A DNA stretch of 64,000 nucleotides from Candidatus Bathyarchaeia archaeon (GCA_038882975.1 JAVZNE010000003.1:1-64000); one strand, 5' to 3'. Shown: positions 26,553-37,066, counted from the stretch's first letter. Translations and numbers: made by a program. Notes: generated from the sequence alone by a model not told the origin.

Positions 26553-26839
26553 AAAATAATACATAACAATGCCGCCTCGCAAGCTCTTCAGGCACGTAGG
26601 AAAGCATGGACTGCTGTCGATGACCCCCCAAACAACTATCAGTTCATTATTTTAATCCTCTGAGAAAAAGGTAACTTCAAAAACCCAAAAACCCAAATAC
26701 CTCACAAACTTTTGCATTATTTTGCCCCCCGCATCTTAACGAGGGATTCCAAAAATCCAGCGTAAACCGAACTAAACATAAAATCTGTTTTCATAAGTTG
26801 TGGTCGGGCGGGCAGGATTTGAACCTGCGACACTCCGGT

Positions 26840-26916
26840 TTCTGCACCCTGCACGTGTACGCTTGGTAGGCTGGGTGACGCCCACCAGAACGGCAAACGC
26901 CGCCTATGGTAGGCGT
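26840..26916 (-). other. tRNA-Tyr intron 2 (canonical position 37/38)
   Basis: Central helix CTGT/GCAG, bulges AG^A and AA^A. The flanking exon helix TCCGG/CCGGA forms only after intron 1 is removed. Confidence 0.85.
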
Positions 26917-26923
26917 CTACAGC

Positions 26924-26958
26924 ATCTCCGCCTGCCGGACCCATTGCCCGGGCAAGCT
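26924..26958 (-). other. tRNA-Tyr intron 1 (non-canonical position 30/31)
   Basis: Bulge-helix-bulge: central helix CTTC/GGAG, bulges CG^A and AT^G, inner stem GCTTGCC/GGCAGGC. Confidence 0.85.
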
Positions 26959-27036
26959 CGGAAGCTCTACCAAGCTGAGCTACCGCCCGCCCAGCTAAAT
27001 TCTAGTGGAATAAAACTGATTTATATGTTTCGTGGT

Positions 27037-29570: not shown

Positions 29571-29673
29571 GGGCCGGTAGTCTAGCTGGCTAACAATGAA
29601 AAGCGATAAATTGAGGCTTAGGGACGTCGCCCTCACGCGGCGAAGGTCACCGGTTCAAATCCGGTCCGGCCCA
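29571..29673 (+). tRNA. tRNA-Val(CAC) with a ~29-31 nt intron in the D-loop region
   Basis: GGGCCGG/CCGGCCC acceptor, TCGCC-CTCACGC-GGCGA anticodon arm, ACCGG-TTCAAAT-CCGGT; 103 nt with extra sequence between the D-stem strands (exact splice sites ambiguous). Confidence 0.9.
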
Positions 29674-29720
29674 CTCTTCTCAAGTTTTTAAACTTTTATA
29701 TCTGCATTGTTAATTAACGG

Positions 29721-36460: not shown

Positions 36461-37066
36461 TTGATTCATGCAGACCTACACATTCATACAATGTTTTCGC
36501 CCGACGCTTCAATACACCCAAAAACCATAGTGGAGCAGCTTTTCGCCCACCCCCATATAAAAGCGGCTGCAATAACAGATCATAACACAGTTAGAGGATA
36601 CTATAAGGTGTTGGAGTTAGCCAAAGCCTACCCAGACATCCTCATTATTCCAGGCATCGAAGTCAGCTCTTTTGGCGGCGATTTGATCCTTTTAGGAATT
36701 GCTGAAGTTCCGCCCCAACCGTGGACCGTTAAAAATGTCATAGATTTTGCCCATGAAAGAGGTGGCTTGGCGATTGCTGCACATCCCTATAGGGTCTTCG
36801 GTTTGGGCGATTTCGCCAAAAACTATGTTATTGACGCTGTTGAGGTTTTGAATGGCGGTTGCTCCCGCCAACTCAACATGCTAGCCGAGGAACTAGCAAA
36901 GGCGATGGCTTTGCCCGGCGTGGCTGGAAGCGACGCCCATAGGGCGGATGAGCTTTGGACCGTTTACAACGAAATTCAAGCTTCAACGGATTTAGATGAA
37001 ATTTTAAGGGCTATTAAACGGGGACATGTTAGGGTTGCCTATGCTGGAAAGTCAATACATTTTTAA
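36461..37066 (+). CDS. PHP-domain phosphoesterase
   Basis: DLHIHT, ITDHN, PGIE, AHP, GSDAH. Confidence 0.9.
   Translation: MIHADLHIHTMFSPDASIHPKTIVEQLFAHPHIKAAAITDHNTVRGYYKVLELAKAYPDILIIPGIEVSSFGGDLILLGIAEVPPQPWTVKNVIDFAHERGGLAIAAHPYRVFGLGDFAKNYVIDAVEVLNGGCSRQLNMLAEELAKAMALPGVAGSDAHRADELWTVYNEIQASTDLDEILRAIKRGHVRVAYAGKSIHF

Follow-up and report, generated by a model that had tools for sequence, protein, structure and literature searches.

An intron of a bathyarchaeal tRNA-Tyr gene contains a conserved module predicted to refold the precursor around U35

The precursor of tRNA-Tyr(GUA) encoded in the 64,000-nucleotide stretch of DNA analyzed here (the window; Candidatus Bathyarchaeia archaeon, GCA_038882975.1, JAVZNE010000003.1:1-64000) is almost certainly a two-state RNA, as two folds of it are equally conserved among relatives and mutually exclusive. 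One is the fold for splicing; the other is built by a module within the second intron that would pair with exon residues G30-G34 and with the D-loop. Compensatory changes over at least two archaeal classes, pairing with exon sequence far from the intron, and the existence of a second fold are strong comparative evidence that the module is functional. What it does is a harder matter; tentatively, and at a little under an even chance, we favor a checkpoint before splicing at which U35 would be converted to pseudouridine.

The gene lies on the minus strand, with introns at positions 30/31 and 37/38 (Table 1). Its acceptor stem is CGGGCGG/CCGCCCG, followed by A73 and an encoded CCA; the D arm is GCTC-AGCTTGGTA-GAGC, the anticodon stem TCCGG/CCGGA with the loop CTGTAGA, and the T arm GCAGG-TTCAAAT-CCTGC. 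Removal of both introns leaves a cloverleaf with anticodon GUA, C1-G72, and A73, as in archaeal tRNA-Tyr; we take the last two to be identity elements of that tRNA. Intron 1 has a helix of its own (GCTTGCC/GGCAGGC), which covaries, and its GGAG pairs with C25-C28. The last two bases of intron 2 (AA) lie in the 3' bulge of its splicing motif. The gene was not reported by ARAGORN in default mode. With introns allowed (-i), the same ends were returned, mis-called as tRNA-Arg(TCG) with one 92-nt intron, so in practice such a gene is missed or mis-called by standard tRNA finders. The tRNA-Tyr stretch matched no Rfam family, whether at the gathering score or with E values of up to 10 allowed, chance-level matches aside. 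The sequence CATATAAAT is found at about 27019-27027 on the minus strand, some 30-38 nt upstream of the tRNA start, where an archaeal TATA-type promoter box would be expected. A tRNA-Leu(GAG) gene with a 9-nt intron at position 32 (window 29571-29674, plus strand) was likewise found by ARAGORN only with introns allowed.

Table 1. Features of the tRNA-Tyr gene and of the module in its second intron
Feature	Position	Strand	Basis
tRNA-Tyr(GUA) gene, two introns, CCA encoded	26801..26989	minus	read by hand; homologues in relatives
5' exon, positions 1-30	26959..26989	minus	sequence and relatives
D-loop G15-G22 (GCTTGGTAG), predicted partner of the D-loop complement in intron 2	26967..26975	minus	MFE fold; covariation at 17 and 20
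Intron 1, 35 nt, between G30 and G31	26924..26958	minus	sequence and fold
Middle exon G31-G37 (GCTGTAG)	26917..26923	minus	sequence; anticodon GTA 26920-26918
U35-A36, unpaired in the module fold	26918..26919	minus	MFE fold; U35 26919, A36 26918
Intron 2, 77 nt, canonical 37/38	26840..26916	minus	sequence and relatives
Long hairpin, G37+ACGCCTACCA with TGGTGGGCGTC	26877..26917	minus	MFE fold; cap 26904-26889
Linker ACC	26874..26876	minus	variable in relatives
CAGCC, complement of G30-G34	26869..26873	minus	sequence and MFE fold; 98-99% paired in 46 relatives
TACCAAGC, complement of D-loop G15-A21	26861..26868	minus	fold and covariation
Spacer GT and ACA	26856..26860	minus	spacer variable, ACA invariant in relatives
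GCAG (pairs with C32-U35, central splicing helix) and AA	26840..26845	minus	helix 100% paired in 46 sequences
3' exon, A38 to CCA	26801..26839	minus	sequence

Within intron 2, the module runs from a hairpin that starts at G37, through a linker, CAGCC, and TACCAAGC, to two further nucleotides and ACA. The hairpin consists of G37+ACGCCTACCA (26917-26907) paired with TGGTGGGCGTC (26887-26877) in 11 pairs, one of them G-U, and is closed by a cap (GGCGGC-GTTT-GCCGTT, 26904-26889), a 6-bp stem with a GUUU loop that an earlier note on this sequence had overlooked and that is confined to the window's genus. CAGCC complements G30-G34, a run that is continuous only in the exons, G30 (26959) and G31 being kept apart by intron 1; CTACCAAGC (26869-26861) is complementary to the D-loop GCTTGGTAG (26975-26967). 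U35-A36 is thereby flanked by the G30-G34:CAGCC helix and the G37+intron hairpin, and ACA (26858-26856) lies exactly 15 nt past the C at 26873. Unconstrained minimum-free-energy (MFE) folding of the whole 188-nt precursor returned this module fold (-96.8 kcal/mol, z -5.05, none of 200 shuffles as stable), with the pairings D-loop GCUUGGUAG:CUACCAAGC, GCUG:CAGC, and G37+ACGCCUACCA:UGGUGGGCGUC. The earlier note had claimed, from the sequence alone, a refolding of the precursor with these pairings, a 9-nt D-loop complement in intron 2, an open U35-A36, and ACA 15 nt from the start of CAGCC. All of its pairings and coordinates are correct on the minus strand, and the unconstrained MFE fold is exactly the one it described. 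The energy of the duplex between the intron and the D-arm was, however, equalled by 54 of 1000 shuffled introns. From the window sequence alone the case for this pairing is weak, as are the single-sequence statistics, and it is the comparative evidence that carries the case for the module.

When 60 relatives from the same genus, family, and order were searched by similarity, they yielded, together with fetched regions, 47 candidate loci; 46 parsed as tRNA-Tyr(GUA), and the other (L046) was dropped as a degenerate fragment. The module is present in every one of the 46. Their introns 2 share a layout in which a hairpin at or next to G37 is followed by a variable linker, YAGCC, a D-loop complement of 8-9 nt, one or two bases that vary, ACA, in some genes an insert, [AG]C[AG]G with two further bases, and A38. 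By local folding the linker measures 1-5 nt (mode 3) and, by eye, is longer in Nitrososphaerales. Intron 1 is absent from eight of the 46, all of which keep the module of intron 2. When only genes found by similarity were counted and those found by pattern excluded, 53 of 55 tRNA-Tyr genes carried the module; it is lacking from G346 and from G365, whose intron is just 14 nt long, and both of these belong to other classes. One or two extra introns sit in the T arm of seven of the 46 (L037, L040, L041, L043, L044, L047, and L048), and some relatives' tRNA-Tyr genes reach four introns; an insert in the D stem was seen in L083-L085 and in some named records.

An exact pattern (CTGTAG, 20-50 nt, AGCYTRYYNRGCNNACA) matched 105 of 301 sampled genomes of the class, versus two matches for the reversed pattern used as a control. 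Families missed by the exact pattern do have variant forms of the module. In G065, the D-loop is GCTTGGAAG and the intron reads CAGCC-TTCCAAGC-GA-ACA, with a compensatory A:U pair at position 20; G069 and G127 have the module with ACA at 15. Family f24 has a differing D-arm, GCTC-AATGGCA-GAGC, and an intron, CAG(G)CC-ATGAGC, that complements it, with ACA at 14 and spanning the 3' splice site. A looser pattern matched other classes of the phylum, where the reversed control gave about 20 matches. Among the 120 matches listed from named species genomes, at least 63 are archaeal tRNA-Tyr genes of Bathyarchaeia/Bathyarchaeota and Nitrososphaeria, the latter including Nitrososphaera, Nitrosocosmicus, Nitrosotalea, Nitrosotenuis, and Nitrosopumilaceae records; the remaining listed matches are without tRNA context, mostly bacterial, and were counted as chance. 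Contigs from two runs labelled metatranscriptomic and two DNA runs contained pieces of related tRNA-Tyr genes from mixed communities, with no joint at intron ends. In G320, two tRNA-Tyr-type modules occur 1 kb apart (contig C42:35557-35605 and 36598-36648), with the same module and quite unlike hairpins, possibly through gene duplication. When the 13 other ARAGORN-predicted intron-bearing tRNAs of the window's genome were compared with their own D-arms, no comparable module was found. The idea that it is a general property of this genome's introns was dropped, as only tRNA-Lys(UUU) beat all 200 shuffles and no module could be read there.

For covariation analysis, the 46 tRNA-Tyr genes were aligned with MAFFT. 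Over this alignment the module fold is 96.4% paired, and none of 500 shuffles reached its covariation score or its percentage of pairs; sliding the partners by 1-3 columns reduced pairing to 21-53%. Two D-loop pairs are altered on both sides, in nine and eight sequences: position 17 and its intron partner read UA in 32, CG in nine, UG in two, and other combinations in three, and position 20 and its partner UA in 32, CG in eight, UG in five, and one other. A filter that demanded ACA at offset 15 and a minimum of 10 of 13 pairs passed 145 distinct sequences, in 139 of which all eight D-loop pairs form; in this pattern-selected set, position 17 reads C:G in 85, U:A in 56, U:G in two, and C:A in two, and position 20 reads U:A in 105, U:G in 21, C:G in 14, A:U in three, and mismatches in two. 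The hairpin has changes on both sides in five of the eight pairs counted. Nearly all changes in YAGCC:G30-G34 are wobble-compatible C-to-U replacements, and this helix cannot covary because its exon strand is invariant. In the consensus that RNAalifold itself drew, the D stem is retained along with the helix of intron 1, G31-G34:CAGC, and the hairpin; the D-loop:intron helix is absent from it.

The splicing fold, comprising the anticodon stem, C32-U35:[AG]C[AG]G, and the hairpin, is 97.4% paired over the same 46 sequences, its central 4-bp helix 100%. Intron 2 presents a bulge-helix-bulge (BHB) in which two 3-nt bulges carrying the splice sites (N N and A38; A36, G37, and the first intron base) lie 4 bp apart beside the exon helix. 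This is the relaxed form, as the intron-side outer helix is a hairpin and not a continuous helix. Both folds use G30-G34, so the precursor has to leave one fold in order to enter the other; in short introns the D-loop complement lies just 2 nt from the splicing helix, so by this reasoning D-loop pairing and the splicing fold cannot coexist there. Nearest-neighbor energies, in which tRNA tertiary stabilization is not counted, place the module fold 7 kcal/mol on average below the cloverleaf-plus-splicing fold, and it is the lower in 45 of 46, the exception (L024) having been mis-indexed in the computation. The earlier note had thus been right that the module fold excludes the BHB helix, and the switch half of its proposed modify-then-splice switch is well supported by two conserved folds that share G30-G34; the covariation it had called for across Bathyarchaeia is present in the D-loop pairing as U:A, C:G, and A:U.

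The spacing between CAGCC and ACA had been named beforehand as a refuting test of the guide idea, and in all 53 module-bearing genes found by similarity it is conserved at 14-16 nt. Counted from the start of YAGCC, ACA is at 15 in 48 of these, at 14 in four, and at 16 in one; in the window's order it falls 15 nt after the Y in 45 of 46 and 16 nt after it in L020. ACACA, with offsets 13 and 15, occurs in four of the 46, and the offset in L024 was confirmed by visual inspection. Two lineages (L045, L049, and L051; and G127) have gained a base in the D-loop complement and have a spacer of only 1 nt, the offset still being 15, and the spacer itself takes the form of 13 different dinucleotides among the 145 sequences. 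In about one-third of sequences the splicing helix is itself formed by an ACAG that begins with this ACA, which would be a plain reason for its presence there. Elsewhere it directly precedes a separate ACGG or ACAG, or stands upstream of a separate GCAG at a distance of 3 to about 20 nt, and is still invariant. With its distance from YAGCC fixed at 14-16 nt and that from the splicing helix variable, ACA is tied to the module rather than to the splice site. No covarying pairing partner for ACA was found in the relatives' tRNA-Tyr genes. Pairing with the start of the intron, as an outer splicing helix, suits one lineage (GTGT...) and shows no covariation elsewhere, and pairing with UGU of the variable loop was ruled out by genes with GCGTC loops, which keep ACA.

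Spacing of this kind is a property of H/ACA guide RNAs, in which the lower stem measures 7-9 bp and 14-16 nt separate ACA from the top of the pocket (PMC4652768). The n+15 spacing is set by the stacked lower stem and 3'-side guide-target helix, the side that contacts Cbf5 (PMC7075261), and the 3'-side pocket pairing matters most (PMC4652768, PMC7075261, and PMC2651775). In the window, ACA is 15 nt from the guide base beside the target U, and the target U and its 3' neighbor are unpaired between two helices; with G30-G34:YAGCC imposed, exactly U35-A36 is predicted to be unpaired and G37 paired in only 51 of 73 relatives, so this arrangement is not universal. The candidate lower stem is the covarying helix of 8-9 bp, separated from ACA by one or two unpaired bases, but its 5' strand is the D-loop of the tRNA and it is not a self-contained hairpin. 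The earlier note's caveat that upper stem and K-turn are lacking holds. In the window and in relatives a variable linker alone stands between the guide strands, with no upper stem (P2); inspection of the window hairpin and of the relatives' hairpins of 8-10 bp with 3-5-nt loops revealed no paired GA/GA of a K-turn or K-loop, and none was seen by eye in intron 1 or across the junction. Neither a C box (RUGAUGA) nor a D box (CUGA) was found when intron 2 was read by eye. Disruption of the G:A pairs of the K-turn in Haloferax put an end to pseudouridine formation in vivo and greatly reduced it in vitro (PMC7075261). Because upper stem and K-turn are missing, the module as judged by its sequence falls outside the H/ACA guide family; by analogy it would at most act like the lower half of such an RNA, nearer to guide-independent action of Cbf5.

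Cbf5, Nop10, Gar1, and L7Ae are all encoded in the window's genome. So is Pus7/TruD, whose status the earlier note had proposed to check, as a 458-amino-acid protein with the catalytic Asp (GIKDAKA), the basic residue of motif IIIa (IKQ), and NFFGHQRFG; its sole departure is a basic pair after the Asp that reads AK here versus KR in Methanosarcina. Loss of the motif IIIa lysine cripples Pus7 of Sulfolobales, whereas losing the basic pair alone has a smaller effect (PMC2651775). The enzyme of the window's genome is accordingly likely to be active, a point against a guide being needed; Pyrococcus Pus7 also makes pseudouridine 35 without one, according to the available text of PMC2651775, and this too weighs against a guide. 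Of 61 relatives, 57 yielded a TruD/Pus7. No copy was found in any of five genomes of genus g140 (G348, G362, G390, G397, and G418; 95-99% complete) or in either of two genomes of family f10 (G045 and G053; 96-97% complete), and the stand-alone pseudouridine 13/35 synthase was possibly lost across these lineages. A sister genus (G439) has TruD. Three of the genomes in which Pus7 was not found (G348, G045, and G053) keep an intact module in tRNA-Tyr, and the two f10 genera differ from each other in the hairpin but have identical modules. That Pus7-less lineages keep the module speaks against its serving Pus7, and is why Cbf5 on the ACA is favored over stand-alone Pus7. The presence of Cbf5 (53 of 61 relatives; 38 of 39 good genomes) was rejected as a discriminator, being near-universal and hence uninformative. 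The Cbf5 gene itself (G000 contig C8:54744-55723, L096, minus strand, outside the window) has an insert of about 23 nt in the catalytic GGTL|DP motif, with a stop after GGTLEA and the frame resuming at NVTGVLP; in most relatives the gene is likewise interrupted at model position ~70 or has a single in-frame stop at that point. The interruption looks like the endonuclease-spliced mRNA intron of Crenarchaeota described in the available text of PMC2738675. Directly beside this gene (G000 contig C8:54287-54671), ARAGORN calls a tRNA-Asn with a 292-nt intron, which may be spurious or may be a tRNA whose intron really is long.

By pairing with G30-G34 and with D-loop residues G15-A21, the intron 2 module draws the precursor into its second predicted fold, which opens the anticodon stem, ties the D-loop to the intron, makes neither splice site available, and leaves U35-A36 unpaired between two helices. 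Under the checkpoint that we tentatively favor, conversion of U35 to pseudouridine would take place while the precursor is in this fold. Release of the module would then let the splicing fold form, offering the endonuclease the anticodon stem and C32-U35:[AG]C[AG]G beside the 3' splice site, and the intron would be excised. The identity of the enzyme is the more speculative part. The candidate is Cbf5 with Nop10 and Gar1, the PUA domain of Cbf5 being anchored on single-stranded ACA and on a stack of 13-14 bp formed by the D-loop:intron and G30-G34:YAGCC helices. Such anchoring would put U35 at n+15, as in H/ACA particles, and without an upper stem or L7Ae the hairpin would replace the second guide-target helix. 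In its full form, the proposal is that pre-tRNA-Tyr acts as its own pseudouridine guide in Bathyarchaeia, Nitrososphaeria, and some other Thermoproteota, a K-turn-less mimic of the H/ACA lower half docking Cbf5 and setting U35 at n+15, with modification or release licensing splicing; stated so specifically, we consider it rather unlikely.

The same two exclusive, conserved folds, with the module fold predicted to be the more stable, could also act as a structural checkpoint with no modification, keeping the unspliced precursor out of tRNA shape. This might stop charging or use in a cell with no nucleus, or time and order the removal of several introns. Relatives with up to four introns in tRNA-Tyr would fit such a role, as would the way the module strand bridges the two exon segments flanking intron 1. 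It leaves the invariant ACA at 14-16 nt and the open U35-A36 unexplained, however; eight of the 46 relatives and most of the Nitrososphaeria inspected lack intron 1 and keep the module, and none of the 13 other predicted intron-bearing tRNAs of the genome has a module. We regard this explanation as unlikely, though by no means negligible.

The D-loop pairing is the best-supported part of the module, and the intron might accordingly serve to open the elbow, holding G18-G19 and freeing the T- and D-loops for a distant modification enzyme (for example, for T-loop methylation or pseudouridines, or archaeosine at G15). In yeast, the intron of tRNA-Tyr is needed for m1A58, far from the intron, as reported in the available text of PMC12168002. 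Such a role is nonetheless improbable, as YAGCC:G30-G34, the open U35-A36, and ACA would all be left unexplained. G15 itself is paired in the module fold.

Quite improbable as well is that the module fold merely shows U35-A36 to stand-alone Pus7, as in eukaryotic pre-tRNA-Tyr, with ACA incidental. In its favor count the presence of Pus7 in most relatives and the UGUAG of tRNA-Tyr, which fits the Pus7 target consensus UGUAR. Pyrococcus Pus7 requires an A after the target U, according to the part of PMC2651775 available. Against it stand the f10 (two of two) and g140 (five of five) genomes in which TruD was not found and the module is intact, the identical module of the f10 genera with their differing hairpins, the modification of intron-less tRNA-Tyr by archaeal Pus7 (PMC2651775), and once more the unexplained ACA.

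Alternatively, the excised, possibly circular intron could be a stable small RNA acting in trans on tRNA-Tyr or another RNA. The module lies wholly inside the intron, and the box C/D guide in the tRNA-Trp intron is a precedent, as far as the available text of PMC4090602 describes it. We hold this to be very unlikely, as the 13-nt module strand has just this one perfect complement in the 1.42-Mb assembly, its target is made up of two segments of its own molecule, G37 as partner in the hairpin belongs to the exon, and box C/D motifs are absent. Chance complementarity carried by shared descent is extremely unlikely: although the single-sequence shuffle test (54 of 1000) is unimpressive and kinship inflates shuffle tests, there are three kinds of compensatory change at two pairs, both pair states occur inside one family and across two classes, and the f24 intron tracks its own differing D-arm while neighboring intron parts vary freely.

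The persistence of introns in archaeal tRNA genes has long called for an explanation. To our knowledge, the box C/D intron of tRNA-Trp is the only archaeal tRNA intron with a demonstrated role. If the pseudouridine checkpoint is true, RNA-guided modification would extend to a substrate that guides itself, and tyrosine anticodon modification in the Pus7-less lineages would be accounted for. Were the module truly a cis guide, it would be the first cis-acting guide of H/ACA type and the first partly built from exon, and possibly an intermediate between guide-independent Cbf5 on tRNA and trans H/ACA RNAs. The literature, supplementary files aside, gave no description of intron/D-loop pairing or of a cis pseudouridine guide for archaeal tRNA-Tyr. 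Nitrososphaera, Nitrosotalea, Nitrosotenuis, and Nitrosocosmicus are groups with cultured members, so bench testing is feasible.

The closest known systems are the trans H/ACA RNAs Sso1 and sR115 of Sulfolobales/Aeropyrum. According to the available texts of PMC2651775 and PMC11077068, pseudouridine 35 is formed by such an RNA in Sulfolobales on pre-tRNA-Tyr that carries its intron, and guiding by sR115 is confirmed in vivo (PMC11077068). Like the module, they target U35 with the intron still present in the substrate, pairing with the anticodon stem-loop 5' of U35 and with G37 and the intron 3' of A36; their ACA is 14 nt from the target in those same texts (PMC2651775 and PMC11077068), and 15 in the module. 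They are, however, separate trans genes with a lower stem, upper stem, and K-turn of their own, whereas the guide strands of the module would lie in the intron and its lower stem would be formed with the D-loop of the tRNA. They also occur where Pus7 has lost the motif IIIa lysine, whereas around the module Pus7 mostly looks intact.

The box C/D guide in the tRNA-Trp intron of Euryarchaeota resembles the proposed module in that an intron guides modification of its own exons before splicing (PMC4090602, available text), but it belongs to another guide class, uses fibrillarin and another chemistry, and its boxes have no counterpart here. Eukaryotic pre-tRNA-Tyr, with pseudouridine 35 made by Pus7 and with m1A58, offers the same tRNA, the same intron position, and an intron conserved because a modification needs it, as far as the available texts of PMC12168002 and PMC4090602 go. 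It differs in relying on protein-only recognition, and those texts describe no intron/D-loop pairing; in eukaryotes nuclear compartments order the steps, whereas here RNA refolding would do so. Guide-independent archaeal Cbf5, acting with Nop10 and Gar1 on tRNA U55 and 23S U2603/2607, modifies a U atop a helix with no need of H/ACA RNA, L7Ae, or a K-turn, according to the available text of PMC6138745. Unlike the module, those substrates are closed 7-nt loops in which the target is the second loop base, and that text reports no ACA-at-15 rule. Finally, the atypical H/ACA RNAs of Pyrobaculum and Sulfolobus islandicus show, in the available portions of PMC11077068 and PMC4652768, that Cbf5 particles tolerate guides from which canonical parts are missing; the module would be their mirror image, with the lower stem and ACA present and the K-turn hairpin absent.
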